From Lentisphaerae bacterium GWF2_57_35 (GTDB lineage: Bacteria > Verrucomicrobiota > Kiritimatiellia > CAIQIC01 > GWF2-57-35): 64,000 nt of DNA. A program made the translations under genes and the position numbers. The stretch lies in the NCBI GenBank assembly GCA_001804865.1, contig MHBK01000061.1, positions 9,547-73,546 of the forward strand. The letters are read 5' to 3'. Of the stretch, positions 7,594 to 59,161 are shown piece by piece. The notes under the pieces are model-generated. The model did not search any database. It saw only the letters and a list, made by a program, of their open reading frames with translations, and had not been told where the DNA came from. Numbering within the stretch: position 1 is the stretch's first letter; every line of letters starts with the position of its first letter.

Positions 7594-7630
7594 GGGATGG
7601 CTCTTCTCAAATGGCCGGCACGATAGTTGT

Positions 7631-10307: not shown

Positions 10308-10319
10308 AGAGATTCATTT

Positions 10320-11567: not shown

Positions 11568-11589
11568 CCGTCATGCGGCGGAGCAGGAC

Positions 11590-33944: not shown

Positions 33945-34001
33945 TTACCGCTCACTAAAATGCAAGCAGGATTTGCCTCTGACGAAATCCGGGAAAACAA
34001 G

Positions 34002-34067
34002 GCGCTCAGCGGAGTGAGCGCCCTACCCACGGCAAAGAACGGTAGGGACGGCGCTCCGTCGCCGTCC
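34002..34067. repeat. REP family C, copy 2 (between divergent darA and darB)
   Basis: GCGCTCAGCGGAGTGAGCGCCCTACCCACGGCAAAGAACGGTAGGGACGGCGCTCCGTCGCCGTCC. Confidence 0.75.
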
Positions 34068-34115
34068 GATGTTCAATTTGTCGCGGGAGAGGGGATAGGA
34101 ACGCAGATATTACGA

Positions 34116-35261
34116 ATGAAGACTGTTTATATTAATGAAGTGGCTTCCTTTCTCCCCAATGACGCCGTAGCCAACGACGATATGGATCGGTTGCTGGGCA
34201 ACGAAACCGCCGCCAAAAAGCGAATCCGCCATATCATTCTTAGTCGTAATGGGATACAGTCGAGGCATTACGCGATCGATCCGGCTACGGGCGCGTTCAA
34301 TTATACCAATGCGGCCCTGACGGCCGAGGCCGTTCGCCGGTTGCCTCAGGCGGCCGGGCAGCCGCTCGAATGTTTGTGCTGCGGCACATCCTCTCCGGAT
34401 CAATCGTTGCCGGGCCATGCGCTCATGGTGCAGGGGGAGTTGAAAATGGGCCCGTGCGAGACGGCGAGCTTTTCGGGGATTTGCGGCTCGGGGATGTCGG
34501 CGCTCAAGTACGCGTTTCTGAATGTGGCCTCTTCCCAGTCGGCTACGGCGGTGGCGACCGGGTCCGAGTTGTCGTCCATCATGTTTCGATTTGCCGATCA
34601 ATGGTCCGAGGAGGCAAATCCGGACGAACTGGAGCGCCAGCCCGGCTCGCAGTTTCATTCCCAATTCCTGCGCTGGATGTTATCCGATGGAGCCGGAGCG
34701 GTCTGGATGTCCGGCGCACCCAATAAGAATGGACTTTCCCTGCGCGTGGATTGGGTCGATCAGGTTTCCTATGCCCATGAGCTGGAGCCTTGCATGTATA
34801 TGGATGCAGCCAAGGATGACGCCGGCCAATTGACGGGCTGGCGCCGGATGGTCTGCGACGATAAATCCGACCCGCGAGGCCCGGCCTGTTTGCGGCTGCA
34901 GCAGGATGTGAAGCTGTTGAACCGGTTTATTGTCGAGTATGCCGTGGACCGAGCGCTTAGAACCATGGCCGCGAGACGCGAGTTGGACGTGAGCCGGATC
35001 GATTGGTTCCTTCCGCATTACTCGTCGGAATATTTCCGCAAGCCTCTGTTCGAACGCCTAAAGCAGGCCGGCTATGAAATTCCCGAGAACAAATGGTTCA
35101 CCAATCTTTCCGAGAAGGGGAACACGGGCGCGGCCTCGATGTATATCATGCTGGAAGAACTCTTCCATTCGGGGCGATTGAAGCCGGGACAGAAGCTTCT
35201 TTGCTTTGTACCGGAAAGCGGGCGGTTTGCTTTCTTCTATATGATGTTGACGGTGGTTTGA
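34116..35261 (+). CDS. darB: KAS III (FabH)-like ketosynthase, DarB-type (2,5-dialkylresorcinol-forming)
   Basis: MKTVYINEVASFLPN... FabH-like start. Thiolase-fold core with a Cys in the SFSGICGSGMSAL region and C-terminal ...NTGAASMYIMLEEL. Confidence 0.65.
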   Translation: MKTVYINEVASFLPNDAVANDDMDRLLGNETAAKKRIRHIILSRNGIQSRHYAIDPATGAFNYTNAALTAEAVRRLPQAAGQPLECLCCGTSSPDQSLPGHALMVQGELKMGPCETASFSGICGSGMSALKYAFLNVASSQSATAVATGSELSSIMFRFADQWSEEANPDELERQPGSQFHSQFLRWMLSDGAGAVWMSGAPNKNGLSLRVDWVDQVSYAHELEPCMYMDAAKDDAGQLTGWRRMVCDDKSDPRGPACLRLQQDVKLLNRFIVEYAVDRALRTMAARRELDVSRIDWFLPHYSSEYFRKPLFERLKQAGYEIPENKWFTNLSEKGNTGAASMYIMLEELFHSGRLKPGQKLLCFVPESGRFAFFYMMLTVV

Positions 35262-35275: not shown

Positions 35276-35686
35276 GTGAAAGACAAAGATGTAGCGCAGG
35301 AACAAGGCCTATATGGCGGCGAACGCGTCGTTAGATACGCGGTGGATGAAACCGGGCGTTACGTGAAAGTCTTGAGCAAGGGCTGGGCGCCGGCAAATGT
35401 GGCCAACGAGATGGCGATCGCTTCCTATGAAGACGAAGCCGAAAAGCAGCGGCGCCTGGTCTTGCAGGGGCAGGCCAGTCCCCTGGCCTTTCGCATGGCG
35501 CAAGCCAAGATGGATGAAGCGCTGCTGTCCGAATACGCGGGATTTTCCCGGCGAAAAGTCCGCCGCCATCTGACGCCGGAAGGCTTTCGGGCGCTTTCGG
35601 CAGAAGAGCTGGATCGGTATGCGCGGGCGTTGGGTCTCGCCCGCGAACAACTGATGAGCGCTCCCGAGGGCAAAACGACCGTATGA
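35276..35686 (+). CDS. Hypothetical protein (~136 aa) in the dar/ABC operon
   Basis: In-frame continuation of ORF 35093..35686, trimmed to the first start (GTG 35276) after the darB stop. No recognisable family. Start uncertain (alternative ATG 35411). Confidence 0.35.
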   Translation: MKDKDVAQEQGLYGGERVVRYAVDETGRYVKVLSKGWAPANVANEMAIASYEDEAEKQRRLVLQGQASPLAFRMAQAKMDEALLSEYAGFSRRKVRRHLTPEGFRALSAEELDRYARALGLAREQLMSAPEGKTTV

Positions 35687-36711
35687 CGACCGAAATTCCA
35701 TTTCCGCACGTTCAAGCGGCGCACTGCGAGAGCGGCGTCATATCTTCTCTCTTGCGCCATCGCGGCATCCCGATCGACGAACCCATGGCCTTTGGGATCG
35801 GCGCGGGCTTGTTTTTCGGCCATTTCCCGTTCGTCAAAATCGACCGGTGCCCCCTGACGACTTTTCGAATGCCTCCCGGCTTCATCATCGGCCAGTTATG
35901 CCGGGCCTTGCGGGTGAAGATCAAAAGCGAACGCTTTCAGGATCAGGCCACGGCGATGGCCGCGCTGGACAAAGCTTTAGGCGAAGGCATTCCCGTGGGC
36001 TTGCAGGTGGGCGTGTTCTGGCTGCCGTTCATGCCTCCGCCGATGAGATTTCATTTCAATGCCCATAATCTCGTGGTCTATGGCCGCAACGGAAACGATT
36101 ACCTGATCAGCGATCCTTGTTTCGAACATCCGGTGCTCTGCGAGGCCGCCGCCCTGGCCAAGGCCCGTTTTGCCAAAGGGCCGCTCGCGCCTCGCGGCCG
36201 CATGTATTATCTGCCTCCGGGGGCCGCGCCTTCGACGCCTGTGGGACCCGCGATGATCCGCGGCGCCCGACGGACCAGTTTCCTAATGATCCGGCAACCT
36301 ATTCCGTTTGTGGGTTGTCCCGGCATCGGATTTTTGGCGCGCCGCATGGAACAGTGGCCGCGCCGCGTGGGCTCCATGACGGCGGCCCGGTACATGGCCC
36401 AAGTCATCCGGATGCTGGAAGAGATCGGCACGGGAGGCTCCGGTTTCCGATTCCTGTTCGCGGCGTATTTGCGGACCATGGCCGGCTGCGTCGAGCCGGC
36501 GAAGGAATTGAAAATCCTATCGGACGAACTGACGGACATCGGCGACCGATGGATGGAGTTTGCCGTGGTCGGCGCCCGCATCTGCAAGGATCGCCTTCAG
36601 GACGAGGCGGCCTACGCCCAGGCGGCGGAAATCCTGAGGGACTGCGCCGTGCGGGAAAAAACCGCTTTCCGGCGTTTGGCAAAACTACCCCTTAAGGCGA
36701 TTCGCTCGTGA
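35683..36711 (+). CDS. BtrH_N/DUF4872-family protein (papain-like fold proteins found in acyl-transfer biosynthetic contexts)
   Basis: MTTEIPFPHVQAAHCESGVISSLLRHRGIP... matches the BtrH N-terminal domain signature (conserved Cys near the N-terminus). ATGA overlap upstream. Confidence 0.5.
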   Translation: MTTEIPFPHVQAAHCESGVISSLLRHRGIPIDEPMAFGIGAGLFFGHFPFVKIDRCPLTTFRMPPGFIIGQLCRALRVKIKSERFQDQATAMAALDKALGEGIPVGLQVGVFWLPFMPPPMRFHFNAHNLVVYGRNGNDYLISDPCFEHPVLCEAAALAKARFAKGPLAPRGRMYYLPPGAAPSTPVGPAMIRGARRTSFLMIRQPIPFVGCPGIGFLARRMEQWPRRVGSMTAARYMAQVIRMLEEIGTGGSGFRFLFAAYLRTMAGCVEPAKELKILSDELTDIGDRWMEFAVVGARICKDRLQDEAAYAQAAEILRDCAVREKTAFRRLAKLPLKAIRS

Positions 36712-47522: not shown

Positions 47523-49007
47523 TTAATTCTGTTGTAAAGACTTGCTTTTATCTGGCGGTGTTCCCCACCGCCTATTGCTGAAGGCGAAGGAGAGAAAGGC
47601 TTTCAGATTCTTCAGGAAGCGGAGCCAACTGTCGGGGGATTGCCAGAGCATGGCGACATAGCCGAGCAGGATGCGGGTGCGGGTGAAGTGGCGTTTGTAA
47701 AACTCCTGGAACAACGCTTGCAGGCGGTCGAGCCGGATGCCTTCCGGAACGAACAGAAAATGCATGCAGTCCATTTTTTCCCAGTTCTCGTCGAAGCGTC
47801 CGCGCTCATGGATGCCGGCGTACAACGGCGTGCCGGGGAAGGGGGTGAACTTGGCGATGTTGAGGTCGTTCAAGGGCAGGGATAAAACGTAGTCCATGCT
47901 TTTTCGGATGGAGGTTTCCGTTTCGCCGGGCAGACCGAGCATGACGAGCCCTTTGACGCGAAGGCCGGCGCGTTTGATCTCGCGGATCTTGTCCCGCAGC
48001 ATGCTTAAGTCGCTTTGCTTTCGGTGCTGCGACAGAAGTTCCGGGTCGCCGGTTTCGATGCCGAGGCTGATCATCCAGGCGCCCGCCTGCTTCATCAGGG
48101 CCAGCAAGGCCGGGTCGAGCTTTTCGGCGCGGGCGGCGCAGTTGAAGGTCATGCCCAGGGGACGGTCGATCAGCTTTTTCATGAGTTCTTCCACCCGCCC
48201 CCGATGCAGGGTGAATTGGTCGTCGTAAAAGTTCAGGTGGCGGATGCCAAATCGCCGGCGCAGGTAGGACATGTGTTCATAAACGTAGCCGGGCGAATTG
48301 AAGCGGAAGGTTCGCCCGAAGACCGAGCGGTCGCAATAACTGCATTCGTAAGGACAGCCCCGGCTGGATATGCAACTGGCGTTGGGCGTTCTGGGATAGC
48401 TGAAAATCGGCAGCGTGTAGCGGTCCGGATACCCCGGCAGTTTTTCGTACGCTGGGAAAGGCAGGTCGTCGAGCGGAAGCTGCTCGGTACGGAAGCCGTT
48501 GAAACGGACCTGGCCGTCCTGTCGATAGGCAAGGCCTTTCACGGAGGCCCAGGCGTCGGCGTCCCCTTCGGTTTTCATGAGTTCGGCCATAACCGCTTCG
48601 CCTTCTCCGATGACGGAGGCCTCCATGTCGGTAAACTTTTCCAGGAGCGCCGGGCCCAGCGCCGATACGTGCGGGCCGCCGAAAACGGTGCGCGTTTCCG
48701 GCTGCAAAGTTTTGATGTTGGCGGCCAGCCTTATGCCGTCCAGGAAGGAGGCCGTGGTGCAACTGAAACCGACCAGGGAAGGGCGATGCTCTCGGAGATA
48801 CTCCGGCAGGAGCCGGGCGGCGTCCGGATCGGCATTGAAGTCGAGGAGATCGGCTTTGAATCCCTCGCGTTCGAGATACGCCGCGATGCAGGCCAGCCCC
48901 AGCGGCGGCATGAGGTTCGCTTTGCGCGCGATGTCGCTCGCCGCCATGCCCGCCCCGGCGCCGAGCGGATGAACCAGTAATATTCGTTTGTAATCCAATG
49001 ACGGCAT
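47523..49007 (-). CDS. B12-binding-domain radical SAM enzyme (third paralog; last gene of the locus C operon)
   Basis: N-terminal B12-binding fold (RILLVHPLG...GFSCTTASFLD), then SRGCPYECSYC (Cx3Cx2C). AGGAAA RBS. Confidence 0.75.
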   Translation of the reverse strand: MPSLDYKRILLVHPLGAGAGMAASDIARKANLMPPLGLACIAAYLEREGFKADLLDFNADPDAARLLPEYLREHRPSLVGFSCTTASFLDGIRLAANIKTLQPETRTVFGGPHVSALGPALLEKFTDMEASVIGEGEAVMAELMKTEGDADAWASVKGLAYRQDGQVRFNGFRTEQLPLDDLPFPAYEKLPGYPDRYTLPIFSYPRTPNASCISSRGCPYECSYCDRSVFGRTFRFNSPGYVYEHMSYLRRRFGIRHLNFYDDQFTLHRGRVEELMKKLIDRPLGMTFNCAARAEKLDPALLALMKQAGAWMISLGIETGDPELLSQHRKQSDLSMLRDKIREIKRAGLRVKGLVMLGLPGETETSIRKSMDYVLSLPLNDLNIAKFTPFPGTPLYAGIHERGRFDENWEKMDCMHFLFVPEGIRLDRLQALFQEFYKRHFTRTRILLGYVAMLWQSPDSWLRFLKNLKAFLSFAFSNRRWGTPPDKSKSLQQN

Positions 49008-49018
49008 GCGTCTATTTC

Positions 49019-49648
49019 CTAATCGGCCTGCAAGCGCGATCTTCGCAACTTCGGTTTAAGAAACAACCGATAACCCGAACTGAAATTTTCAATGACGATG
49101 GGCGTCGCTTCGTCGGAAAACCGGATACGGCTGACTCGCCGGGCGTTTTCGAAAAATTCTTTTTGCAGGAGGGCGCCGGTGAAGGCGTCGAATTCATAGC
49201 GAATCCGTACACCGCAAAGCTCTTGCTCCACGCTCCATCGGCCGCGCCGGCTGATCCAGCCGTCGGGGATGGTCGAGGCGGGCGGCTCCCGTAGAAACTT
49301 CAAGTCCTTCCAGGCCGCGGCGGAAAAGGTCTCCAGGCGTTCTCGGGACTGCGGAATATAAACGGCTTTGTGAACAAGATTCGATCCGCCGCGGGCCTCG
49401 AAGATTTTGATGCCTGCCGGGCTTAAGGCGGCGATGGCCAAGGCCTGTTCTGTTTGCTCAACGTATAAGATCAGGGCGATGGACCGGAACCAGATTTTTA
49501 CGCGGGTGCTGTAAACGGCGCTGAGGTTGGCGGGTTGCTGCACGTAATGGCTCCAAACTTCGGCCGGCGTCATGAGCGGTTTGTCCGGGAGCGTGGAGCA
49601 ACTGCATTCAAGCAGCAGCCATAAAAGCGGTATGAAGCGTTTAAGCAT
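49019..49648 (-). CDS. Putative lipoprotein (possibly DUF3261-like, a family recurrent in aryl-polyene clusters)
   Basis: MLKRFIPLLWLLLECSCS signal/lipobox-like N-terminus. 8-nt overlap with the MMPL gene end. Confidence 0.4.
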   Translation of the reverse strand: MLKRFIPLLWLLLECSCSTLPDKPLMTPAEVWSHYVQQPANLSAVYSTRVKIWFRSIALILYVEQTEQALAIAALSPAGIKIFEARGGSNLVHKAVYIPQSRERLETFSAAAWKDLKFLREPPASTIPDGWISRRGRWSVEQELCGVRIRYEFDAFTGALLQKEFFENARRVSRIRFSDEATPIVIENFSSGYRLFLKPKLRRSRLQAD

Positions 49649-52019
49649 GGGCTTTCTCCTTCCCCAGTCCGAGCGCGCGGGCCGCGGGTTCCAGGACCCA
49701 GAGCGCTATGAAAAAACCGCAAGCGAGGCCGCCCGACAAGGTCAACCCAAAGGAAAAAAGGGCGGGATGATGAGCCGCCAATAGGGGCAGGGCGCCCGCC
49801 ATGGTGGTCAGCCACGAGAGCAGGATGCCTTGCTCCAAAAACGGCTGCCGGCCGAGCAGGGCTTCGATTTTAAACACCGCATAGTCGAGGGTGAGTCCGA
49901 TCACGAGCACCAGGGCCATCATGCCCGAGGCATTCAGCCGCTGGCCCGTGAGGGCGAGCAGGGCCAGGGCGCCCGCGATGGCCCCCGCGGCGGTTATCGC
50001 CAGCAGCAAAAGCGCCCTCAGGTTTCTCAGAATGGCCCCTGCCGCCAAGGCAATGCCGAGAAGCCCCAGGAAGGCCAGTCGGCGAATTTCCCGGGTCATG
50101 CCGGAGGCAAACAGTTCGCGCAGTTTGCTTCGGGACACAACCGCCGATGAAGCCGGCAGCTCCGGCATGTTTTGCAGGGCTGCCTGCACCGGCGGCGTCT
50201 CCGGAAAATACGAGAGCGCCATGTGCCCATATTCGTTGCTTCGAACATACGGCGCGGCCAGTTGATCGAAGAACCGCCGGCCCTGCGGGGCGGGGCCGGC
50301 CTCGGCGCCTTCAAAAATGGAATTCATGAAAGGATCGAAAGCCGTTTCGGAAAACCCCTGGGCGGCGCCCAGGCGCCGAAAGGCGTCGCGCAATGGTTCC
50401 TGACGCGCGCTCCAAAACTCGGTCCAACGTTTTGCATTATTTTTCCGAATCGCCTGCGAGGGCCAAACGGCCGACCAGCTTTGCCATGCATTGGAAAGGC
50501 CCCGGTCGGTCATATGCGCATAGGCCAGGTCGTTGGCGGCCAGCGCATCTTCCAGTTGGGGCGCCCAGACGGCAAAAATACCCATATCTTTCATGCCGGC
50601 GCCCCATTGGCGGAAGAAGTCGTCTTCATATTGTTTAATGGCGGGGGCCGTGCCGTCCAGGCGGCTGAAATCGGATTCGACCGTCACGCGGGAGGCCAGG
50701 AGCAGGGCAGCGAGAAAAAACACTGTAAAAATCACGAGAACGAGCGGCCCCTTTTTTGCGGTCCAGCCGAATACGTTGGGCGCGAGGGCTGCCGTCTTGA
50801 TGCGCCGTTCGCCCAACAGGAGCGGCAGGAGCCAGAGCGAAAGGGCGAGGGCCAAAATCAGCGTCGCGGCGGCCAGCAGGCCGAGTTGCCGATAACCCGG
50901 CGCGCTTGAAAACATAAAAGCTAAAAAGGCGGCGATGGTGGTGGCCGCGCTGGTCAGCAGGGGCGCACGAATCCGCCGGATAGCCGCCATCGGCGCTTCA
51001 CGCTCTAGCCGGTGGGCGACGGCAAGAAAGGCATGGATGCCGTAATCGACCGCGATGCCGGCGATCAAACCGGTCAGCCCGATCACGATCAACGCAGGGG
51101 TAAAACCGAGCAGTGTAACGAACGCAAGGGCCGGCAGAATGCACGCCGGCGGAATGGCAAAGATGAGCGCCGCCCGCAAATCGCGGAACAGCAGGAAAAA
51201 CAGAACGAGCAGCGCGCCCGCGCTCATGAACCCCGCCACGCCGATATCCCGTTTGATGACCGCCTGGTTGCTCAAGGTATGCAGATGGCCGCAGATGACG
51301 CCGGCTTTCATGCCCGAAGGCAGCGCGCGCATACGCTCGTTCAAAAAGTCCAGCAGCGCCTGCGAGCGCGCATGGTCCATGATGGCCGCCGGGGTTTCCA
51401 AGACGATCATGGCGGAAGAGCCGTCTTCGGAAGTAAAATGCCCGCCCTGGATCGCAATCTGGTAGCCCAGCGCTTCGCCCAGCCGCTCCAGAGGCTTCAG
51501 GGCCATCGCCCGTACGCCGAGGGGGTCGCGTCGAAAAATTTCGGCCGAGACCAAGCTCTGTGGCGAGAGCATTTCGCGGCGAATATTTTTCAATGCATTG
51601 GAGATGCTTTCATCCGTCAGCTTGCGTTCGACGATTTCGTAATCGGCCGGCCGCAGCAATTGGGGCGCCGAGGTCATGAAGAAACCCAAGTCCTCCTTGG
51701 AGGGAAACATGTTCTGCGCCGTAATGACCCGTGAAATCAGCGGCGACGACAGCGATTGGGCGAAGTTATCCAACGATTGGAAAAACACATCGTCCGGCGT
51801 CTGCCGCGGATCGCGTTGCACCCAGACGATGACCTTGCCGGAGATTTGGGCGGCGTTTAAGAGGCGCAGGGAGGATCGCAAGGCTCCGCCCTCGGGAATC
51901 ATCGATTCGAGAGAGTCGTCGAAGGCAACCCGGGACACGGTCCAGCCGGCGGCCAGCAGCAGTACGCCCAGCAGCGCGATCAAGCCCCAGCGGAGGGGGA
52001 ATGGAGCGGGACCTTTCAT
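49641..52019 (-). CDS. MMPL-family (RND-superfamily) lipid/pigment exporter (ApeM-like)
   Basis: ~790 aa with ~12 TM helices in two 6-TM bundles and a large periplasmic loop. Start set at ATG 52019, which overlaps the LolA stop as ATGA. The track ORF starts at 52037. Confidence 0.75.
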   Translation of the reverse strand: MKGPAPFPLRWGLIALLGVLLLAAGWTVSRVAFDDSLESMIPEGGALRSSLRLLNAAQISGKVIVWVQRDPRQTPDDVFFQSLDNFAQSLSSPLISRVITAQNMFPSKEDLGFFMTSAPQLLRPADYEIVERKLTDESISNALKNIRREMLSPQSLVSAEIFRRDPLGVRAMALKPLERLGEALGYQIAIQGGHFTSEDGSSAMIVLETPAAIMDHARSQALLDFLNERMRALPSGMKAGVICGHLHTLSNQAVIKRDIGVAGFMSAGALLVLFFLLFRDLRAALIFAIPPACILPALAFVTLLGFTPALIVIGLTGLIAGIAVDYGIHAFLAVAHRLEREAPMAAIRRIRAPLLTSAATTIAAFLAFMFSSAPGYRQLGLLAAATLILALALSLWLLPLLLGERRIKTAALAPNVFGWTAKKGPLVLVIFTVFFLAALLLASRVTVESDFSRLDGTAPAIKQYEDDFFRQWGAGMKDMGIFAVWAPQLEDALAANDLAYAHMTDRGLSNAWQSWSAVWPSQAIRKNNAKRWTEFWSARQEPLRDAFRRLGAAQGFSETAFDPFMNSIFEGAEAGPAPQGRRFFDQLAAPYVRSNEYGHMALSYFPETPPVQAALQNMPELPASSAVVSRSKLRELFASGMTREIRRLAFLGLLGIALAAGAILRNLRALLLLAITAAGAIAGALALLALTGQRLNASGMMALVLVIGLTLDYAVFKIEALLGRQPFLEQGILLSWLTTMAGALPLLAAHHPALFSFGLTLSGGLACGFFIALWVLEPAARALGLGKEKAHA

Positions 52020-52762
52020 GGGCGGACACGAGTCCAAAAAGCAGGATCGATAACAGGATTGAGTTGCGTGTCGAGGAAGGAAATGGAGGTTTCGTCGCCC
52101 GAGGCATCGACGATTTCGATGCGGGAGAGATATTGCGCGTCGTCGCGGAGCCGGAGGACGATGGTGTGGATGTACGAGCGCATGGCCGACGATTCGAGCG
52201 GCGAGAACTCAATGGCGATGGGGTTCGAACCGAGCAGCCGGGCGTTGTAGGTATTCGTCAGGGTCGTAAACGAACCGGACAGCCAGGCGGACATCTGCTC
52301 GTAGATGGCGCCGACGACGGGATTTTTGCCGCGGGACAAGACCTGCACGCGGTCGGTCTCTTCGTCCCATTGGCTGATCTGGTCGCCGTTGACGAGCAAT
52401 TTGTAGCGCATCGGGCTGAAGACTTCCCAGGCAAAATGACCGGCATGATCGGCGGTCATTCGGCCTTCCATGCGCAACGTGTCCCGGAAGAGGGCCATCT
52501 TTTTTTCCTGCACGAACCGGCTGGAGACCGACGTGACCTGGCGCAGGTTTTCCTGCCACGCGGCCAGCGCGCGCGAAAGATCGGTGTTGTCGCTTGCGCC
52601 ATCGGAAAAGGAGGGAACGCTCAATCCGGTAAAAATGAGCAGGACCATCAGTCGCCGAGAAATTAGCCAGAACGCCGCGTCCTTACGGACGCGGCTATGT
52701 AGCCGCCGGCGTAAGCCGGTGGATTCTGGCGGTGCGGCAGGATCTATGAGCGATTGGCTCAT
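52016..52762 (-). CDS. LolA-like outer-membrane lipoprotein carrier family protein (ApeL-like)
   Basis: Signal sequence ...RRLMVLLIFTGLSVPSFS. ~200-aa LolA-fold-sized mature part. ATGA overlap with the ammonia-lyase stop. Confidence 0.55.
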   Translation of the reverse strand: MSQSLIDPAAPPESTGLRRRLHSRVRKDAAFWLISRRLMVLLIFTGLSVPSFSDGASDNTDLSRALAAWQENLRQVTSVSSRFVQEKKMALFRDTLRMEGRMTADHAGHFAWEVFSPMRYKLLVNGDQISQWDEETDRVQVLSRGKNPVVGAIYEQMSAWLSGSFTTLTNTYNARLLGSNPIAIEFSPLESSAMRSYIHTIVLRLRDDAQYLSRIEIVDASGDETSISFLDTQLNPVIDPAFWTRVRP

Positions 52763-54378
52763 GTTTCTTCCGGGGGCAAAAACGCATCGAGGCTGTCGAG
52801 CAGCGGGCTGGAAAAAAGTTGCCGGCGCAGGGCCGTCAAATCGTCGTGAAACACGCGTTGATTGTCGTAGACGCTAAACCCGGGGGCCAGCTCCGCATGA
52901 AAGCGTCCGGTGCCGAAACCCAGGCCGGTCGTTTTTTTCAGAGCCAGCGCCTGCAAGTCGGCCAGGGTTTCCAGGGTCAAAACATGCTTGGCATTGCGCA
53001 CGAGGCGGAAGGTTTTGCGGGCGGCGATGGTGCCCATGCTGACGACATCCTGGTTGGAGGCGTTGCAGGAGATGGAGTGAATGCTCATGGGATTGGCCAG
53101 GTGGCGCGTTTCCGCTGTCGAAGAGGTGGCCAGGTATTGCGCGCCCATGAAGCCCATGACCAGGCCGGCCGGCCCGGCAATGAGATGCTCCGGCAGGCCT
53201 TCGTTCAGGTGTTTATCCAGCAGCTTGTTGATCCGGCGTTCGGAGAGATTGCTCAATGTGCAGATCGCAATGCCCAGCATATCCATAGCAAACGACAGGC
53301 TCTGTCCGTGGAAGTTGCCGCCGTGCAGGATCAAGCCCTCGTCCGGGACAATGACGGGGTTGTCGTTGACGCCGTTTGCCTCGATCTCGACGGTCTTGAT
53401 CGCGGCCGCGATAGTCTCGACGACCGGTGCGAGAATCTGGGCGGTGCAGCGGATGGAATAGACATCCTGCACGTTGATATTGGTTTGATAGACCATCTGC
53501 TCGTTGTCGCGGGCCGAATTGATCCGTTCGTGAATCCGGCTGCGCGGGGTAATGTTCGCCGAGCCTTGGTACAGCCGTCGGATGATCGCTGCGGCTTCGA
53601 CCTGGCCGGGGTGAGGCTTCAGCGCGTGCAAATGGGGATCGAAGGCGTCGTCGATGCCGCCGAAAATTTCCATGACGAAGGCCGCATTGAGGTAGGCCAG
53701 CCGCAGCAGTTTTTCCGCGCCGAAGAGCGCGAACGCCGCCAGGGCGGTCATGGCGGAGGTGCCGTTCATCAGCGCGAGGCCTTCCTTGTAGCTCAGGGCA
53801 ATCGGGTGGAGTCCGGCTTGCGCCAGGGCCGCCCGGGCGGAAACCAGTTGGCCGCGCCGGTACACCTGGCCTTCGCCGATGATCGCCAACGCCGCGTGCG
53901 CGAGATGCACGAGATCCCCCGAAGCGCCCACGCTGCCGCTTTCGGGAATGTAGGGGGCGATGCCCGCGTTGATCATGTCGCGCATGAGTTCCAGCAATTC
54001 GATGCGCACGCCGGAGTAGCCTTTCACCAGGGCATTCAGGCGAAGCGTCAGCGTGGCCAGGGCGATGTAGGGCGGCAGCGGATCGCCCAGTCCGGCCGCG
54101 TGACTGCGAATCAGGTTGGCTTGCAGCGTTTCGATGTCCGCGTCGCGGATGATCTTGTTGCACATCGGGCCGAAGGAGGTGTTGACCCCGTAGATGATTT
54201 TGCCGGTCTTGAGTTCCTGTTCCAGGAAATTCCGGGAGGCGCGGCAGCGGTCGAGGCTTTGCGGAGAAAGAGCTACGCGCTTGTCGCCGACCCCGATGGC
54301 CACGATGTCTTCTATCGTTAAATGCTCGCCGGTCAGGACGACTTCCGGCTTTTCCGATGCTTCGTTTGTATTTTTCAT
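52759..54378 (-). CDS. Aromatic amino acid ammonia-lyase (MIO-dependent HAL/TAL/PAL family)
   Basis: MIO triad Ala-Ser-Gly in GSVGASGDL. Overall close resemblance to HutH, including YGVNTSFG and ...NLIRSHAAGLGDPL (Ser-His at the substrate-selectivity position). Tight operon linkage to the ligase, dehydratase and LolA genes. Confidence 0.85.
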   Translation of the reverse strand: MKNTNEASEKPEVVLTGEHLTIEDIVAIGVGDKRVALSPQSLDRCRASRNFLEQELKTGKIIYGVNTSFGPMCNKIIRDADIETLQANLIRSHAAGLGDPLPPYIALATLTLRLNALVKGYSGVRIELLELMRDMINAGIAPYIPESGSVGASGDLVHLAHAALAIIGEGQVYRRGQLVSARAALAQAGLHPIALSYKEGLALMNGTSAMTALAAFALFGAEKLLRLAYLNAAFVMEIFGGIDDAFDPHLHALKPHPGQVEAAAIIRRLYQGSANITPRSRIHERINSARDNEQMVYQTNINVQDVYSIRCTAQILAPVVETIAAAIKTVEIEANGVNDNPVIVPDEGLILHGGNFHGQSLSFAMDMLGIAICTLSNLSERRINKLLDKHLNEGLPEHLIAGPAGLVMGFMGAQYLATSSTAETRHLANPMSIHSISCNASNQDVVSMGTIAARKTFRLVRNAKHVLTLETLADLQALALKKTTGLGFGTGRFHAELAPGFSVYDNQRVFHDDLTALRRQLFSSPLLDSLDAFLPPEET

Positions 54379-54382
54379 CGTA

Positions 54383-54820
54383 TTACTCGTGCCAAAATTT
54401 CAGTTCCGCTTCGGCGAGGCATTCTTCGCCCCGGAGAATCCGGCCTTCCATGATTGCAAAATTCCCGAAATCGGCGGTGCGAATCGCGTGAATGGCCAAG
54501 ACGTCGCCGACGCGCGCGCGGCCTTTCACGGTATATTTTCTCACCCCGACCAACAAGCCCTTCACCGGCCCGCTGCCGGGATGCGGACGGGTCAGCCGTT
54601 CGTGGGCGGCCGCGGCCTGGGCCATCATTTCGATGCCCGATATGGGATCCCAGCTTCCATCGGCCCGGACAAACCAGGCCTCCGCCGGAACGGTCAGGCG
54701 GACGGCGCCGGAGGTTGGGCTGTACGCCAGCACCTCTTCGATGGCCAGCATGGGTTTTTCATGCGGTATAAAAGCGGCTGCCGGAAAAGGGCAGGCCATA
54801 TCATGTGTGCAATCTGTCAT
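54383..54820 (-). CDS. Hotdog-fold dehydratase (ApeI/ApeP-like)
   Basis: ~145 aa hotdog-sized ...PMLAIEEVLAY...GIEMMAQAAAAHE... Start uncertain (alternative ATG 54799). Confidence 0.55.
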   Translation of the reverse strand: MTDCTHDMACPFPAAAFIPHEKPMLAIEEVLAYSPTSGAVRLTVPAEAWFVRADGSWDPISGIEMMAQAAAAHERLTRPHPGSGPVKGLLVGVRKYTVKGRARVGDVLAIHAIRTADFGNFAIMEGRILRGEECLAEAELKFWHE

Positions 54821-56102
54821 GTCTTCGATCCATCCAGCGTACGGGTTTCCGGCTGTCCGGGGGATAAACCAGCGCCCGCATGGTTTCCGGCGTTTCCTCG
54901 ATCACCTCGGGGGCGGCGCGCAGCCGCGACCGGAGCCGGTCGCGAATCGCATCCAGCCCGCTTGCGCCGCCTTTAAATGATGTATGAATCACCAGGGCAT
55001 CGCAACCCTTTTCGACCGTGCGCACTTCCACGCAGTATTCCTGGATGTCTTCGATTTCGTCCAACGCGGCAAAAACGGCGGGCGGATAAAGCGTGGTGCC
55101 CTTGAACTTCAGCATTTGCGATTTGCGCCCGAGAATGGGGCCAAGCCGCACAGAGGTGCGTCCGCAGGCGCACGGTTCGTCGGCCAGGAAGCCGATGTCG
55201 CCGGTTTTGAAGCGCAGCAGCGGCATGGCCTCGACGCCCAGCGGGGTCAGGGTGACTTCGCCCACGGCGCCTGCGGGCAGGGGGCGGTCGTGTTCGTCCA
55301 GTATTTCCACAAGGGCCAATTCCGGCAGCAGATGCCCTCCGCATTGCGCTTCGCATTCGCAAAACGAGGTGACGGTTTCGCTGGAGGCGTAGGTGGAATA
55401 CACGCGCGTCGCCCATGTCTGCTCGATACGGACGGCGGCCGGCAGGGGCTTCCAGGTCTTGTCGCGCAGGGGTTCGCCGATGGCCGCCATCAGGCGTACG
55501 CCGGCGGTGAAGGGGGGAATGCCCATTTGCTCCAGCGCGCCGCCGAGTTTGTTCAGGAAGGACGGCACGCCGACAATCACGGAGGGCTGCCAGCGTTGTA
55601 TGATGTCGGCCAGGCCGCCCAGCGGCGAGTGCCCGGCGCGGATCACGGCGGCGCCGATTTTGCGGAGGCCCAGGTAGTAGGCCAGCCCGGCGACAAAGCA
55701 ACGATCCATCGTGCAGGTCAGCAAGACCACATCGCTGCGGCGGATGCCGCAACCGGAGAGCGCGAGTTGCTCGTTGACGGCCAGCCGGTCGAGATCCGCC
55801 GCCGTATAAGCCACGCGGGTGGGCGTGCCGGTCGTACCCGAGGATTGGACGATGTCCGCGAGTTGAGCCGGCGGGACCGCGAGAAAGTCGTCGTTGTGCA
55901 GGGCGAATTCGCTTTTGGTCGTGACGGGCAGGTCGGTCAGGGCCAGGCCGCCGGCCTTTCGCCCGATATGCCGTTCGGTTCCCATCAGCTTCCGGTAATA
56001 CGGCGAGTGAAGGAGGCAGTGCCGGACGTGCTTATGCAGCAGGCGTTGCTGGACTTTTTCCTGGTCCTGGCGGCCGGCGAACGAGAGCCCTTTTTTCAGC
56101 AT
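54801..56102 (-). CDS. PaaK/F390-synthetase-like adenylate-forming acid-CoA (or -ACP) ligase
   Basis: SSGTTGTPTRVAYT (adenylation motif), ...YASSETV..., and a PaaK-like C-terminal domain. 433 aa. Confidence 0.7.
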   Translation of the reverse strand: MLKKGLSFAGRQDQEKVQQRLLHKHVRHCLLHSPYYRKLMGTERHIGRKAGGLALTDLPVTTKSEFALHNDDFLAVPPAQLADIVQSSGTTGTPTRVAYTAADLDRLAVNEQLALSGCGIRRSDVVLLTCTMDRCFVAGLAYYLGLRKIGAAVIRAGHSPLGGLADIIQRWQPSVIVGVPSFLNKLGGALEQMGIPPFTAGVRLMAAIGEPLRDKTWKPLPAAVRIEQTWATRVYSTYASSETVTSFCECEAQCGGHLLPELALVEILDEHDRPLPAGAVGEVTLTPLGVEAMPLLRFKTGDIGFLADEPCACGRTSVRLGPILGRKSQMLKFKGTTLYPPAVFAALDEIEDIQEYCVEVRTVEKGCDALVIHTSFKGGASGLDAIRDRLRSRLRAAPEVIEETPETMRALVYPPDSRKPVRWMDRRHDRLHT

Positions 56103-56845
56103 GATTCCAGCTCCTTATCCATGACGGCCAATTCCGCCGACATCGCATCCCGGATTCTGTTTTTCAGCGCAAAAGCCGACCAGCCGTTGTACTGCTCCGG
56201 CGTCCATTCCTTCAACTTGTGCAAGAGAATCACGCCGGGCTCCATCCAGAGGGAGCCCCGCCGGGGGATGCGTTCGGTGCCCGCGATGCACAGGGGCACA
56301 ATTGGCGTCTGGGCCTGCATGGCCAGGCGAAAAGCCGCGCTGTAGAAAACGTTCATCTGCCGGTCGCCGGAGCGGGTTCCTTCCGGGAAGAACACGATGG
56401 CCTGGCCCTTCCGCAGCACGGACAGGGCCTGCTCCATCAGGTCCTCGGGCGAAAGGTCGGTTACGCACAGATATCCCGCCCGCTGGGCCATAAAGCCCAG
56501 CAAGGGAATCCGCAGCACCCAGCGCTTGAAGACCTGGATGCCGTCAAAAGACAGCCGCGCCATCAGGAAGGCGTCCGAAGAAGACCGGTGATTGCAGACG
56601 AACACGCAGGCCCCCTTGGCGTAGGCGGGGAAGCGATCCCGGTATTTGATCCGGATGAACGGATAGGGCAGGGCCAGAATAAGGCGGCCGAAAACCTTCA
56701 CGGCCCTTCTGGTCAGATCGGCGTACCGGGCTTTCGGGATTAGCGGCGAACACGCCGCCAAAAGACACGACCCGGGAAGGATCAGAAAAAGAAAAGCCAG
56801 ACTCGTAATGAGCAAAAGCCATGCATTGAACAGCAAATGCATCAT
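56096..56845 (-). CDS. PlsC-type lysophospholipid/1-acyl-glycerol-3-phosphate acyltransferase family protein
   Basis: NHRSSSD (HX4D) and FPEGTRS motifs. N-terminal TM helix. Confidence 0.8.
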   Translation of the reverse strand: MMHLLFNAWLLLITSLAFLFLILPGSCLLAACSPLIPKARYADLTRRAVKVFGRLILALPYPFIRIKYRDRFPAYAKGACVFVCNHRSSSDAFLMARLSFDGIQVFKRWVLRIPLLGFMAQRAGYLCVTDLSPEDLMEQALSVLRKGQAIVFFPEGTRSGDRQMNVFYSAAFRLAMQAQTPIVPLCIAGTERIPRRGSLWMEPGVILLHKLKEWTPEQYNGWSAFALKNRIRDAMSAELAVMDKELESC

Positions 56846-57114
56846 GGGGCAGTGGGGGTGTTCATCTCCTGTTGAACGGCGGCAATGAACGAGTAGATGC
56901 TCTGAAGAGTGCCCAGTTGCCGAATCCGCTCGTCATCCCGAATCGTCACGTCGAATTCCTTTTGCAGCGCGACGATCAAATCCACGGTATCCAGGCTGTC
57001 GAGTCCGAAATCCTGGAAGATATGCGCGGTGGGAACGAGGCGTTCCTGTTCGATCTCAAAGTATTCGACAAGCACTTTGTTGGTTCGTTGAACGATTTCT
57101 GCCTCGGTAAACAT
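56842..57114 (-). CDS. Acyl carrier protein
   Basis: FGLDSLDTVDLIVALQ DSL motif. Internal ATG at 57114 chosen. Confidence 0.8.
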   Translation of the reverse strand: MFTEAEIVQRTNKVLVEYFEIEQERLVPTAHIFQDFGLDSLDTVDLIVALQKEFDVTIRDDERIRQLGTLQSIYSFIAAVQQEMNTPTAP

Positions 57115-57133: not shown

Positions 57134-58369
57134 TTATGTCCGGTCGTTAAAACGATAAAGGAGTGTGGCATTGATGCCGCCAAAAGCAAAGCCGTTCTTT
57201 AAAAGAGTGCGCGTTCGGGCCTCGCGCGTTTCGACGACGTGATCGATGCCCGCGCAATCCGGATCGAGATTTTTCAAGTTGTGCGTGGGGAACAGCCGGT
57301 TGCGCCGCGCCATCTCCACGCAAACAATGCTTTCCAAAGCGCCGGCGGCTCCGAGCGTGTGCCCGAGATGCCCCTTGAAACTGCTGACCGGGGTGCGGCT
57401 TCCAAAGATTGTTCGGATGGCCTCGGCCTCGGCGCAGTCGCCCTGCGGCGTGGCGGTGGCATGCGCGTTGACGTAATCCACTTCGGACGCCTTTACGCCC
57501 GCCTTGTTCAGGGCGGTCGTCATGCATTGAATCATCGCCGCGCTGTTCGACTGGCTGATCTGATCGCCCGTGCTGCACGTGTGGTAGCCGATGACTTCGC
57601 CGAAGATGGGGGCGTTGCGCTTTTGCGCGTGCTCCAGCTCCTCGAGCAGCAAAATGCCGGCGCCTTCGCCGCAGACCAGGCCGTCGCGGTCCCGGTCGAA
57701 AGGCCGGGGCGTTTGCTGCGGGCGGTCGTTGAAGCCCTTGGAGGCGGCGTACAGCACGTCGAACGAGCCCGTCACCATGGGATGAAGCTCTTCCGCGCCG
57801 CCGCAGAGGACCCTATCCTGTTCGCCCCAGCGGATCAAATCGTAGCCCATGCCGATGGATTGCATGCTCGAAGCGCAGGCGGCGGAAGGGCTATAGACCA
57901 TGCCGCGGATTGTAAGATGGTTCGCCACATTCAGCGCCGCCGTGTGCGAGATGCACTGGAAAAACTCCATCGTGGTGACTTTCGAGATGTCGTAATCGGG
58001 GAGCAGTTTTTCGATGGACGAGGCCAGGGTGTTGGTGCTGCCGATGGTGGAGCTGATCACGCAGCCGGTTCGCTCGCTCTGCACTTGCGCATCCGACAAC
58101 CCGGCGGCCGCGATGGCCTGTTTGGCCGCCAGCGCGGAATAGATGCTCATCTTGCTCATCGACCGGCGGTCCTGCCGGGGAATGATTTTTTCGTCCACGC
58201 CCAGGACCGGCGCGGCCACCTTGCTGCGGAGCATCGGATATTTCTGCCATTCCTCGATAATACGCGTCGCGCATTGGCCTGCGGCCACCGCATCGACCAT
58301 GGAGCCCACCTCGTTGCCCAAAGGGGAGATGGCGCCCATGCCGGTAATGACTACTCGTCGGAATTCCAT
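57134..58369 (-). CDS. Beta-ketoacyl-ACP synthase II-like KS
   Basis: SAACASSMQS (Cys), VNAHATATPQGD (His), GHLGHTLGAAG (His). GAGGA RBS before ATG 58369. Confidence 0.9.
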   Translation of the reverse strand: MEFRRVVITGMGAISPLGNEVGSMVDAVAAGQCATRIIEEWQKYPMLRSKVAAPVLGVDEKIIPRQDRRSMSKMSIYSALAAKQAIAAAGLSDAQVQSERTGCVISSTIGSTNTLASSIEKLLPDYDISKVTTMEFFQCISHTAALNVANHLTIRGMVYSPSAACASSMQSIGMGYDLIRWGEQDRVLCGGAEELHPMVTGSFDVLYAASKGFNDRPQQTPRPFDRDRDGLVCGEGAGILLLEELEHAQKRNAPIFGEVIGYHTCSTGDQISQSNSAAMIQCMTTALNKAGVKASEVDYVNAHATATPQGDCAEAEAIRTIFGSRTPVSSFKGHLGHTLGAAGALESIVCVEMARRNRLFPTHNLKNLDPDCAGIDHVVETREARTRTLLKNGFAFGGINATLLYRFNDRT

Positions 58370-58426: not shown

Positions 58427-59161
58427 TTACGACATGGCCAGTCCGCCGTTGACGCTGAACACCTGGCCTTGGATGTACGACGCTTCGTCGGAGCAAAGAT
58501 AGTTGACCAGCGACGCCACCTCGTCCGCCGTGCCCACCCGTTGCAGCGGGATGTGCGGAACGATGTCCTTCACCGGCAGATGCCCGATCATCTCGGTTTC
58601 GATGAGGCCGGGCGATACGGCATTGACCAGAATGTTCTTCTTTCCAACCTCCCGGGCCAACGCTTTCACGGTGCCGATCAGCCCCGCCTTGGACGCGGCA
58701 TAATTGACCTGTCCCGCCTGCCCGACTTCGCCGGAAACGGACGTGATGGCAACGATCCGTCCGCGCTTTTCCCTCAACATGGGAAAGAGCACCGCCTTGA
58801 CGACATTAAAAAAGCCGTTGAGATTGACGTTGATGACGTCGTTCCATTCGCCGGGCGTCATCCAGACCATCAAATTGTCCTTGGCGATGCCGGCATTGTA
58901 AACCACGGCATGGGGAGGAGTGGCGTCCGCCTTCTGGCTCAGGGCGTCGTGCGTGGCTTGGTAGTCGGCCACGTCGAAAGCGAACAGCTCGCAGTCCCGG
59001 CCCAGTGCATGAATCTCGCCTTGAAGGCTTTGGGCCTCCTCGTGGCGGCTTTTGTACGTCAGCCAGATATCGAAGCCGCTACGGGCCAACCGTAGCGCTA
59101 TGGCTCTTCCAATGCCCCTGCTTCCCCCCGCGACCAGTGCAATACGTCGTAAGTCGTTCAT
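58427..59161 (-). CDS. fabG: 3-oxoacyl-ACP reductase (SDR family, FabG/ApeQ-like)
   Basis: ALVAGGSRGIGRAIA (TGxxxGxG-like), NAG, YxxxK in ...NYAASKAG... Confidence 0.85.
   Translation of the reverse strand: MNDLRRIALVAGGSRGIGRAIALRLARSGFDIWLTYKSRHEEAQSLQGEIHALGRDCELFAFDVADYQATHDALSQKADATPPHAVVYNAGIAKDNLMVWMTPGEWNDVINVNLNGFFNVVKAVLFPMLREKRGRIVAITSVSGEVGQAGQVNYAASKAGLIGTVKALAREVGKKNILVNAVSPGLIETEMIGHLPVKDIVPHIPLQRVGTADEVASLVNYLCSDEASYIQGQVFSVNGGLAMS

Follow-up and report, generated by a model that had tools for sequence, protein, structure and literature searches.

Does the ammonia-lyase of a bacterial polyene operon deaminate histidine, as the residues at its so-called selectivity switch might suggest, or tyrosine, as expected of a pathway that starts from 4-coumarate? 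The question is raised by one gene in the window, that is, the whole stretch of 64,000 nucleotides of contig MHBK01000061.1 from Lentisphaerae bacterium GWF2_57_35 that was analysed here. An earlier note had placed a MIO-dependent ammonia-lyase at 52759-54378, which our analysis reproduces with the minus strand as the coding one, and had pointed to Ser-His at the switch, the state of histidine ammonia-lyase (HAL). From this it proposed either a tyrosine ammonia-lyase (TAL) with non-canonical selectivity residues or a pathway primed with a urocanate-like starter. The underlying premise was that TALs of flexirubin clusters carry His-Leu at these positions, which is wrong, because the literature gives S/H for both FlxA and FjTAL (PMC3992019, PMC9321829).

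In the flexirubin pathway of C. pinensis, FlxA combines HAL-like residues at the Watts motif with the Gln of TALs and phenylalanine ammonia-lyases (PALs) at the second motif (Schoener et al. 2014, PMC3992019). The enzyme acts on Tyr with a kcat/KM of 7728 M-1 s-1 and on Phe about 1000-fold more poorly, i.e. with weak PAL activity, and shows no activity on His; FlxY of the same pathway is a characterised 4-coumarate-CoA ligase (PMC3992019). Brack et al. (2022, PMC9321829) accept S/H as one of four TAL signatures, with an S/H branch that holds FjTAL together with the TAL of C. pinensis, and find the discriminator between TAL and HAL at positions 435/436, which are N/Q in the former versus Q/E or T/E in the latter. 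According to the same study, tyrosine aminomutases (TAMs) and TALs are alike at both 89/90 and 435/436 and cannot be told apart with certainty by sequence, a hydrogen bond between the position-90 His and the para-hydroxyl group is reported for S/H-class TALs, and PALs typically have Phe-Leu. Since Ser-His is thus found in HALs, TALs and TAMs, it does not discriminate between them, and the step from Ser-His to a histidine substrate is not supported: FlxA and FjTAL are Ser-His yet tyrosine-specific, and the tyrosine aminomutases are Ser-His too.

Sequence signatures of the ammonia-lyase

The gene starts with ATG at 54378-54376 and stops with TGA at 52761-52759, and its product matches PF00221 (Lyase_aromatic) with E = 5.7e-167 and 556.5 bits, above the Pfam gathering score. 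The gene and the positions that bear on its specificity are as follows.

52759..54378, minus strand: MIO-dependent aromatic amino acid ammonia-lyase, predicted TAL of the Ser-His/Asn-Gln class, 539 aa (ORF and translation, PF00221, alignment, tree)
54163..54174, minus strand: inner loop Phe69-Gly70-Pro71-Met72, the FGPM of FjTAL; SgTAM has YGEM, with Glu at the Pro position
54100..54105, minus strand: Ser92-His93, the "selectivity switch" (RsTAL 89/90), in 120 of 120 close homologues and in the same state in FjTAL, SgTAM and P. putida HAL
53917..53925, minus strand: Ala152-Ser153-Gly154, from which the MIO prosthetic group forms, ASG in 120 of 120 close homologues
53050..53055, minus strand: Asn442-Gln443 (RsTAL N435/Q436; P. 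putida HAL Q413/E414), the state of TAL, PAL and TAM and not of HAL, within NQD(V/I)VSM in 120 of 120 homologues

For the alignment, P. putida HAL and RsTAL were represented by the sequences of their PDB entries, save for C273A in the top HAL chain 1GKM, and the FjTAL reference was checked by its score on the FlxA model (902.2 bits). The SgTAM and AdmH references are fragments taken from the PDB alignments, in which the MIO placeholder was put back to ASG.

The alignment shows that the catalytic residues of the superfamily are kept (Tyr63, Asn205, Tyr307 and Arg310). The motif NLIRSHAAGLGDPL at 54076-54117, quoted in the earlier note, contains Ser92-His93, and in the MAFFT columns this pair falls on His89-Leu90 of RsTAL and on Ser-His of P. 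putida HAL (S82/H83; His83 in the published numbering). The assignment of Ser-His to the switch columns therefore stands, its presence in all 120 homologues shows that it is no chance substitution, and the alignment check that the note had called for returned Ser-His and not the His-Leu of the RsTAL/Sam8 class. At the second site, the glutamate that histidine ammonia-lyases require (P. putida E414) is replaced by Gln (Gln443 in the window protein) throughout the 120 homologues; since it is absent, the protein most likely serves as an ordinary starter enzyme that turns tyrosine into coumarate. Of the two readings first proposed, that of a TAL lacking His-Leu is thus supported, whereas "non-canonical" does not fit: S/H together with N/Q is the canonical signature for a flexirubin-type pathway and not an anomaly.

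The inner loop follows the pattern (F/Y)GPM in 118 of the 120 close homologues, the remaining two not matching it. A Tyr is also present at the position of SgTAM Tyr415, but Glu-type (HAL-like) sequences commonly have Tyr in this column as well, so we dropped it as an argument for a tyrosine substrate.

Model scores and phylogeny

The protein lies under every NCBIfam equivalog cut-off. It reaches 474.6 bits on TIGR01225 (hutH), for which the cut-off is 539.15, and 498.7 bits on the HAL subfamily NF006871, which is its top-scoring NCBIfam model yet has a cut-off of 524. Such scores do not indicate HAL function, because FjTAL, a proven TAL, scores nearly as high on the same HAL models (437-442 bits). 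On the FlxA equivalog NF053541 the score is 451.1 bits against a cut-off of 700, hence the protein is not a FlxA orthologue by the NCBI standard and belongs only to the same functional class; on the TAM model TIGR03832 it is 436.5 bits against 501. Among PDB structures, tyrosine aminomutase (SgTAM, 1.9e-91), AdmH and RsTAL match best, all ahead of HAL. Likewise, the identity to P. putida HAL is 36%, versus 38-39% to FjTAL, RsTAL, SgTAM and AdmH, which contradicts the impression that the sequence tracks HutH closely.

The close homologues form a tight clade, with 63-75% identity across several phyla, mostly of anaerobic bacteria, and an isolated one, which yields a single representative at 50% clustering and has its next cluster at only 44% identity. 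Cultured bacteria that carry the gene include Desulfuromonas soudanensis (P0013), Geomonas and Desulfamplus magnetovallimortis. Public annotations label this clade histidine ammonia-lyase. Among the nine best-scoring full-length representatives of the 50% clustering, N/Q is present in all nine and S/H in seven; Ser-His is the majority state among HAL-type and aromatic-type neighbours alike.

Neighbour-joining trees with 100 bootstraps were built from representatives clustered at 50% identity. In the smallest clade that joins the window protein with FjTAL, each of the 13 members is S/H-N/Q. This clade is free of Glu-type sequences in 100/100 bootstraps and of SgTAM in 88/100, and it is purely S/H-N/Q in 68/100, a moderate support for the sister relation. 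By its sequence, the group to which the window protein belongs is most probably a new clade inside the known Ser-His TAL class.

Gene context

The lyase gene is part of a minus-strand operon, the layout of which agrees with the co-transcription suggested at first. The dehydratase stop is followed by TACG and then by the lyase ATG, i.e. by a 4-nt gap, the lyase stop and the LolA-like start share ATGA, and 20 nt are common to the ligase gene (54801-56102) and the dehydratase gene.

58427..59161, minus strand: ketoreductase, FabG-like (NF004200.0 FabG, 294.2 bits, above the cut-off of 273) and also near FlxB (NF053542 FlxB_rubin_SDR, 287.6 bits, below 340)
57134..58369, minus strand: beta-ketoacyl-ACP synthase (PF00109, PF02801)
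56842..57114, minus strand: acyl carrier protein (PF00550)
56096..56845, minus strand: lysophospholipid-type acyltransferase (PF01553)
54801..56102, minus strand: PaaK-type adenylating ligase, best match NF053551 FlxY_rubin (7e-127, 423.7 bits, below the cut-off of 520)
54383..54820, minus strand: ApeP-like (hot-dog) dehydratase (PF22817, weak, 21.3 bits against a cut-off of 27)
52016..52762, minus strand: LolA-like carrier (PF03548; best NCBIfam match LolA2_flexi, 87.6 bits, below the cut-off of 125)
49641..52019, minus strand: MMPL/RND-type exporter, 792 aa (PF03176 at threshold)
49019..49648, minus strand: DUF3261-like protein in an ApeN-like position (PF11659, 22.7 bits)
47523..49007, minus strand: B12-binding radical SAM enzyme, whose gene closes the operon (PF02310, PF04055), at most 63% identity in related loci

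Two further groups of genes lie on the plus strand of the window. One points to the dialkylresorcinol branch, and the other is a second, detached block that belongs to the same system, with the gene order found in contiguous clusters (L003, L085).

33960..35261, plus strand: ketosynthase of the StlD/DarB family, dialkylresorcinol branch of flexirubin-type pathways (NF005293, 501.4 bits, above the cut-off of 450)
35683..36711, plus strand: DarH, BtrH-related acyltransferase (NF053550, 412.8 bits, above the cut-off of 300)
7627..12957, plus strand: the detached second block as a whole
7627-8496, plus strand: 4HBT thioesterase
8493-10307, plus strand: KS-like protein
10320-11567 and 11548-12957, plus strand: two B12-radical SAM enzymes

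DarA was not found, the ORFs adjoining darB giving only a weak flavodoxin-like match. The B12-radical SAM enzymes of the cluster include a member of TIGR04072, and methyltransferases are present as well. An ORF of 5402 aa (14674-30882) was considered as an NRPS/PKS partner and rejected, as its product is a surface protein rich in repeats, in which PKD, CARDB and CarboxypepD_reg domains are present.

In related loci, a FlxY-like ligase lies directly upstream of the lyase gene in 40 of 70, and cluster genes accompany it in 39 of the 45 that have at least 5 kb on both sides; fusions of the lyase with an ApeP-type dehydratase also exist among the homologues (P0047, P0109). In some phyla, e.g. Fibrobacterota, the lyase gene is solitary and away from polyketide-type genes. 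No hut gene for urocanase or imidazolonepropionase turned up, either among the scanned ORFs of the window or in the homologue neighbourhoods examined, and the initial remark that hutU and hutI are missing nearby is thus borne out by the Pfam matches. The literature searched on aryl-polyene clusters of Geobacter and sulfate reducers offered nothing specific that links them with an ammonia-lyase, and the ammonia-lyases named in the Pelobacter genome paper are those for ethanolamine and aspartate only.

Substrate and reaction

From the signatures, their conservation, the phylogeny and the gene context we infer that the gene encodes, with good probability, a Ser-His/Asn-Gln TAL of the class of FlxA and FjTAL that makes 4-coumarate for an aryl-polyene-type pathway. 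Its most likely role, judged by these data, is to supply the 4-coumarate starter of a flexirubin/aryl-polyene-like pathway.

Three other readings were weighed against this one. The protein might be a lyase for another aromatic amino acid, such as Phe, DOPA or a methylated or halogenated Tyr, and so provide a different cinnamate-type starter. The clade is at most 39% identical to characterised enzymes, the B12-radical SAM enzymes and methyltransferases of the cluster could act before or after deamination, and FlxA itself has weak PAL activity (PMC3992019). However, the position-90 His is the residue reported to hold the para-hydroxyl in S/H-class TALs, PALs typically carry Phe-Leu (PMC9321829), and the characterised S/H lyases are strongly Tyr-selective (PMC3992019), which leaves such a substrate unlikely.

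Somewhat less probable again is a tyrosine 2,3-aminomutase, which would give beta-tyrosine instead of 4-coumarate. The best PDB matches are SgTAM entries, an E71A variant of SgTAM among them, and the window protein has S/H, N/Q and the Tyr at the Tyr415 position in common with SgTAM. The last of these is not diagnostic, being common in Glu-type sequences too. Glu71 of SgTAM matters for mutase activity, but the window protein has Pro71 at this place, in a loop that equals that of FjTAL and resembles that of RsTAL and not YGEM. The TAM model score falls short of its cut-off, and SgTAM stays outside the clade of the window protein and FjTAL in 88 of the 100 bootstraps. The surrounding genes, among them that of the FlxY-like ligase, belong to a polyene system of the FAS/PKS-II-like kind and not to an NRPS or enediyne one. 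The likeness of TAMs and TALs at 89/90 and 435/436 (Brack et al., PMC9321829) is compatible with either reaction.

A true histidine ammonia-lyase priming the pathway with urocanate (imidazole-acrylate) is highly improbable, for although Ser-His at 89/90 is as in P. putida HAL, the HAL subfamily is the top NCBIfam model (498.7 bits) and public annotations say the same, Ser-His does not discriminate, Gln443 stands for the HAL Glu in every homologue, both HAL cut-offs are missed while FjTAL scores almost as high, 0/100 bootstraps group the protein with Glu-type sequences, and the adjacent ligase is FlxY-like (4-coumarate-type) with no hutU or hutI found nearby. The urocanate starter offered as the second option of the earlier note is thus very unlikely: the HAL glutamate is absent, the score is below the hutH cut-off, the clustering is of the FjTAL type, the ligase is FlxY-like, and we found no positive support.

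Proposed pathway and its significance

With tyrosine as the preferred substrate, the MIO group formed from Ala152-Ser153-Gly154 would take ammonia off L-tyrosine to give 4-coumarate, which the FlxY-like ligase encoded just upstream would activate. The ACP, ketosynthase, ketoreductase and dehydratase might then extend it to an aryl-polyene-type acyl chain, and the acyltransferase, LolA-like and MMPL proteins may attach and export the product. DarB and DarH, encoded elsewhere in the window, suggest that the partner is a dialkylresorcinol, as it is in flexirubin.

The main value of the analysis lies in correcting a misreading. A HAL is not identified by Ser-His at the Watts "selectivity switch", though public records label the clade so, and it is the Glu/Gln site (P. 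putida E414) that is informative. A tight Ser-His TAL-like clade appears, by its signatures and neighbours, to be the entry point of an aryl-polyene/dialkylresorcinol-type pathway with B12-radical SAM enzymes. In antiSMASH surveys, B12-radical-SAM clusters of non-anammox phyla are labelled "ladderane" without a known product, and an aryl starter derived from tyrosine would speak against products of the ladderane type wherever a cluster is built as in the window. There is a small chance that the enzyme, or the whole isolated clade, takes histidine or another non-tyrosine substrate or acts as an aminomutase; if so, an unprecedented head group, e.g. imidazole-acrylate or beta-tyrosine, would prime the flexirubin or "ladderane-like" lipid clusters found in anaerobic Verrucomicrobiota, Desulfobacterota, Planctomycetota and further phyla.

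Comparison with known enzymes

HutH of P. putida (PDB 1B8F/1GKM) has in common with the window protein the fold, the MIO triad, Ser-His and the superfamily-wide catalytic Tyr, Asn, Tyr, Arg and Phe, whereas it differs in Gln-Glu (E414) versus Asn-Gln, in the loop, in an identity of 36% and in its hut operon, of which no counterpart was found in the window. SgTAM/SgcC4 (PDB 2OHY, 2RJR) is alike in S/H, N/Q and the Tyr at the Tyr415 position, but has Glu71 where the window protein has Pro71, and its pathway context differs. With the RsTAL/Sam8-type enzymes (PDB 2O6Y) the protein has in common N/Q at 435/436 and the GP(L/M) loop, and 4-coumarate is the product expected of both; these enzymes have His-Leu in place of Ser-His, and in the window protein the phenol-binding His would be found one position further on. 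The closest counterpart is FlxA/FjTAL (NF053541), FjTAL being the nearest characterised relative in the tree. The window protein equals this type in S/H at 89/90, N/Q at 435/436, the FGPM loop and the ASG triad, and it occurs in the same flexirubin/aryl-polyene-type setting, with a FlxY-type ligase, KS, KR, ACP, dehydratase, LolA and MMPL proteins and with DarB/DarH elsewhere in the window; yet it is only 39% identical to FjTAL and stands in a tight clade of its own.

The MIO gene and its operon

The 539-aa MIO enzyme is encoded at 52759-54378, where the earlier note had placed it, on the minus strand, with ATG at 54378 and TGA at 52759-52761, and it matches the Pfam aromatic amino acid lyase family (PF00221) with E = 5.7e-167. 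The Ser-His motif that had been read in it, NLIRSHAAGLGDPL, is confirmed. Gene order and junctions agree with the proposed single operon with ligase, dehydratase and LolA genes: the TAA of the ApeP-like dehydratase gene is followed by TACG, which is the claimed 4-nt gap, and then by the MIO ATG, and the MIO stop shares the claimed ATGA overlap with the LolA-like start.

Operon genes, in order, and sites within the MIO gene
58427-59161, minus, ketoreductase (gene 1)
57134-58369, minus, ketosynthase (gene 2)
56842-57114, minus, ACP (gene 3)
56096-56845, minus, acyltransferase (gene 4)
54801-56102, minus, AMP-ligase (gene 5)
54383-54820, minus, ApeP-like dehydratase (gene 6)
52759-54378, minus, MIO enzyme (gene 7)
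52016-52762, minus, LolA-like protein (gene 8)
49641-52019, minus, MMPL exporter (gene 9)
49019-49648, minus, DUF3261-like protein (gene 10)
47523-49007, minus, B12-binding radical SAM enzyme (gene 11)
54076-54117, minus, motif NLIRSHAAGLGDPL
54100-54105, minus, Ser92-His93 within this motif
53917-53925, minus, MIO-forming triad Ala152-Ser153-Gly154

Among NCBI models, the best match of the AMP-ligase, whose gene is two genes upstream of the MIO gene with the small dehydratase gene between, is FlxY (7e-127, 423.7 bits vs cut-off 520), a 4-coumarate-CoA ligase (PMC3992019), and that of the LolA-like protein is LolA2_flexi. The ketoreductase matches FabG best (294.2 bits), with FlxB at 287.6 bits, below its cut-off of 340.

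Divergent to the operon and upstream of it is an RND efflux pair (60097-64000, plus), namely a membrane-fusion protein and an ACR_tran permease running past the window end, with a spacer of ~1 kb that holds two small hypothetical ORFs. The radical SAM end adjoins a defence-system-like module of an AAA_21 ATPase (45480-46880, plus) and an RloB-like protein (46835-47485, plus); 42523-43746 (minus) codes for a DUF1016 protein.

Active site compared with characterised enzymes

The window protein was aligned with CHARACTERISED enzymes: P. putida HAL, R. sphaeroides TAL (RsTAL), F. johnsoniae TAL (FjTAL), the S. globisporus tyrosine aminomutase SgTAM and the phenylalanine aminomutase AdmH. The HAL and RsTAL references match their PDB entries, save for C273A in the top-matching HAL chain; the FjTAL reference scores 902 bits on the NCBI FlxA model (cut-off 700), and SgTAM and AdmH are fragments from PDB alignments.

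Identity to the window protein; positions 89/90 (RsTAL numbering); inner loop; positions 435/436
Window protein: Ser-His; FGPM; Asn-Gln
FjTAL: 39%; Ser-His; FGPM; Asn-Gln
SgTAM: 39%; Ser-His; YGEM; Asn-Gln
RsTAL: 38%; His-Leu; FGPL; Asn-Gln
AdmH: 38%
HAL: 36%; Ser-His; FGLL; Gln-Glu

The selectivity residues are Ser-His, not His-Leu, as the earlier note had read them, but its remark that the protein tracks HutH closely does not hold, HAL being the least identical of the five compared. The window protein thus equals the flexirubin enzyme FjTAL at every discriminating site. It lacks the HAL Glu (E414 in published numbering) by which literature alignments part HALs from aromatic enzymes.

Ser-His had been thought anomalous on the premise that flexirubin TALs carry His-Leu, which is incorrect because published FlxA and FjTAL are S/H (PMC3992019, PMC9321829). 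FlxA of the Chitinophaga pinensis flexirubin cluster resembles HAL at the Watts motif and has Gln, as TAL and PAL do, at the second motif; it converts Tyr to 4-coumarate with kcat/KM of 7728 M-1 s-1, is ~1000-fold lower on Phe and has no activity on His, and the switch alone was stated to be unable to predict specificity (Schoener et al. 2014, PMC3992019). TALs are reported with H/L, Y/H, F/H or S/H at 89/90, the S/H branch holding FjTAL and the C. pinensis TAL, and 435/436 is N/Q in TAL/PAL and Q/E or T/E in HAL; tyrosine aminomutases show the same states as TALs (Brack et al. 2022, PMC9321829). Ser-His is the normal state for TALs of flexirubin-type pathways, and the anomaly was already explained, as an S/H flexirubin-type TAL has been in print since 2014.

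Conserved residues and phylogenetic position

A word-indexed search gave 6757 relatives, and in the best 120 of them (65-100% identical to the window protein) SH, NQ and ASG each occur in 120/120 and the (F/Y)GPM loop in 118/120. An exhaustive HMMER search over representatives clustered at 50% identity shows a tight and isolated clade, with the top representative at 747 bits and the next at 467 bits and 44% identity. All nine best-scoring full-length representatives have N/Q, seven with S/H as well, and Glu-type sequences rank after them. Most sequences of the N/Q and Glu-type groups alike have Ser-His, which is thus uninformative. The window protein falls under every NCBI curated cut-off tested (HAL subfamily, 498.7 vs 524; hutH, 474.6 vs 539; FlxA, 451 vs 700; TAM, 436.5 vs 501), and its near-HAL score is typical of S/H-class TALs, since the proven TAL FjTAL reaches 437-442 on HAL models.

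In neighbour-joining trees, the smallest clade to include both FjTAL and the window protein comprises 13 sequences, every one of them S/H-N/Q. In 100 bootstraps this clade never took in Glu-type sequences, excluded SgTAM in 88 and RsTAL in 77, and was purely S/H-N/Q in 68; with moderate support, the window clade is sister to the FlxA-type TALs. The phyla to which its MAGs and genomes are assigned include Verrucomicrobiota, Desulfobacterota, Fibrobacterota, Planctomycetota, Lentisphaerota, Calditrichota and Gemmatimonadota. What is new here is of modest extent: a tightly conserved clade of putative TALs, sister to the FlxA type.

Related loci

We compared 81 related loci from named genomes. Of the 70 with enough upstream sequence, 40 have an FlxY-like ligase gene immediately upstream of the MIO gene; of the 45 flanked by 5 kb or more on each side, 39 carry cluster genes. 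In two homologues (P0047 and P0109, 678 aa) an ApeP-like dehydratase is fused to the C-terminus of the MIO enzyme. Across phyla (loci L003-L083) the median identity of the MIO protein is 67%, far above that of its partners (ligase 41%, ACP 40%, ApeP-like 32%, acyltransferase 30%, MMPL 27%, LolA 26%).

No homologues of the operon genes were detected around the MIO gene in the other six of these 45 loci, which are Fibrobacterota, Victivallales and Chitinivibrionales MAGs with MIO proteins ~67% identical to the window's. Loci lacking them include L021, L030, L031, L050, L055, L065 and a Fibrobacterota contig, L084 (8653-11584). In the gene calls of L084 the MIO gene adjoins a SAM synthetase gene, and genes for KS, ACP or ligase are absent within 10 kb. 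As the earlier note had said of hutU/hutI, no hut genes occur among the window ORFs scanned, nor in the homologue neighbourhoods examined.

Other biosynthetic genes in the window

Additional genes in the window fit a flexirubin/aryl-polyene-type system; they include one for an ABC-2 transporter and the following.

33960-35261, plus, StlD/DarB-family ketosynthase (501 bits, above cut-off 450)
35683-36711, plus, DarH acyltransferase (413 bits, above cut-off 300)
39072-41179, KS and KS-like (possible CLF) pair
7.6-13 kb, plus, thioesterase, KS-like protein and two further B12-radical SAM enzymes

DarB and DarH belong to the dialkylresorcinol branch of flexirubin; the genome that carries them here is termed a Verrucomicrobia MAG by its source. 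A search for DarA gave no clear candidate: the neighbouring ORF (32961-33944, minus), which is divergent, is only weakly flavodoxin-like (E = 8e-4).

The 7.6-13 kb gene order is that of contiguous clusters in Desulfuromonas soudanensis (L003) and a metagenomic contig (L085), so the biosynthetic system is split across the window; in both clusters the thioesterase/KS/radical-SAM block adjoins the KR-to-MMPL block, whereas the two are apart here. At least three blocks lie in the 64 kb (7627-13849, plus; 30714-41179, both strands; 47523-59161, minus), parted by a giant surface-protein gene and defence-like genes. The former, a 5402-aa ORF (14674-30882, plus) with PKD, Big_5, CARDB, CarboxypepD_reg (7 copies) and DUF7619 domains, is no synthetase; its product is a giant protein rich in repeats, of surface or adhesin-like type. 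The 604-aa KS-like ORF (8493-10307, plus) matches ketosynthases over residues 3-372, followed by ~230 extra residues; related clusters have two genes at its position, one for a KS and the other for a short KS-N/CLF-like protein, and the ORF may be either a true KS-CLF fusion or two genes merged in calling.

Proposed function

Given the observed signatures, conservation, tree position and gene context, we infer that the MIO enzyme is most probably a tyrosine ammonia-lyase. It would convert L-Tyr to 4-coumarate by MIO-dependent ammonia elimination; the FlxY-like ligase would activate 4-coumarate for loading onto the ACP, and KS, KR and dehydratase would lengthen it in repeated cycles, giving an aryl-polyene acyl chain. 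Transfer or esterification of this chain would follow, perhaps onto a dialkylresorcinol from DarB and DarH; the LolA-like and MMPL proteins would export the product, and B12-radical SAM enzymes and methyltransferases would tailor it.

There is a slight chance that the substrate is another aromatic amino acid. A tyrosine aminomutase, which would share the Ser-His and Asn-Gln states, is somewhat less probable still, considering Pro71 where SgTAM has Glu, the TAM score below cut-off, the placing of SgTAM outside the window-FjTAL clade in most bootstraps, and the gene context. Of the two options in the earlier note, a TAL with a non-His-Leu switch is supported, with S/H and N/Q as in FjTAL, while a true HAL providing a urocanate starter, to which Ser-His had pointed, is highly improbable in view of Gln443 in place of Glu, HAL-subfamily and hutH scores under cut-off, no grouping with Glu-type sequences, the FlxY-like ligase and the lack of hut genes in the ORFs and neighbourhoods covered.

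Comparison with 'ladderane' clusters

Three B12-binding radical SAM enzymes lie beside flexirubin/aryl-polyene-like genes (10320-11567, plus; 11548-12957, plus; 47523-49007, minus). The product of 11548-12957 is a full member (530 bits vs cut-off 360) of TIGR04072, the 'lipid biosynthesis B12-binding/radical SAM protein' (rSAM_ladder_B12). Clusters of anammox bacteria, Desulfotalea and Geobacter join radical SAM enzymes, phytoene-desaturase-like proteins and a 'phenylacetyl-CoA ligase' (Rattray 2009, PMC2649909), and BGCs that antiSMASH surveys class as 'ladderane', with no known product, occur in Desulfobacterota, Verrucomicrobiota, Fibrobacterota and Planctomycetota (PMC9902471). If the starter is indeed an aryl unit made from Tyr, this would favour an aryl lipid over a ladderane in similarly built clusters.
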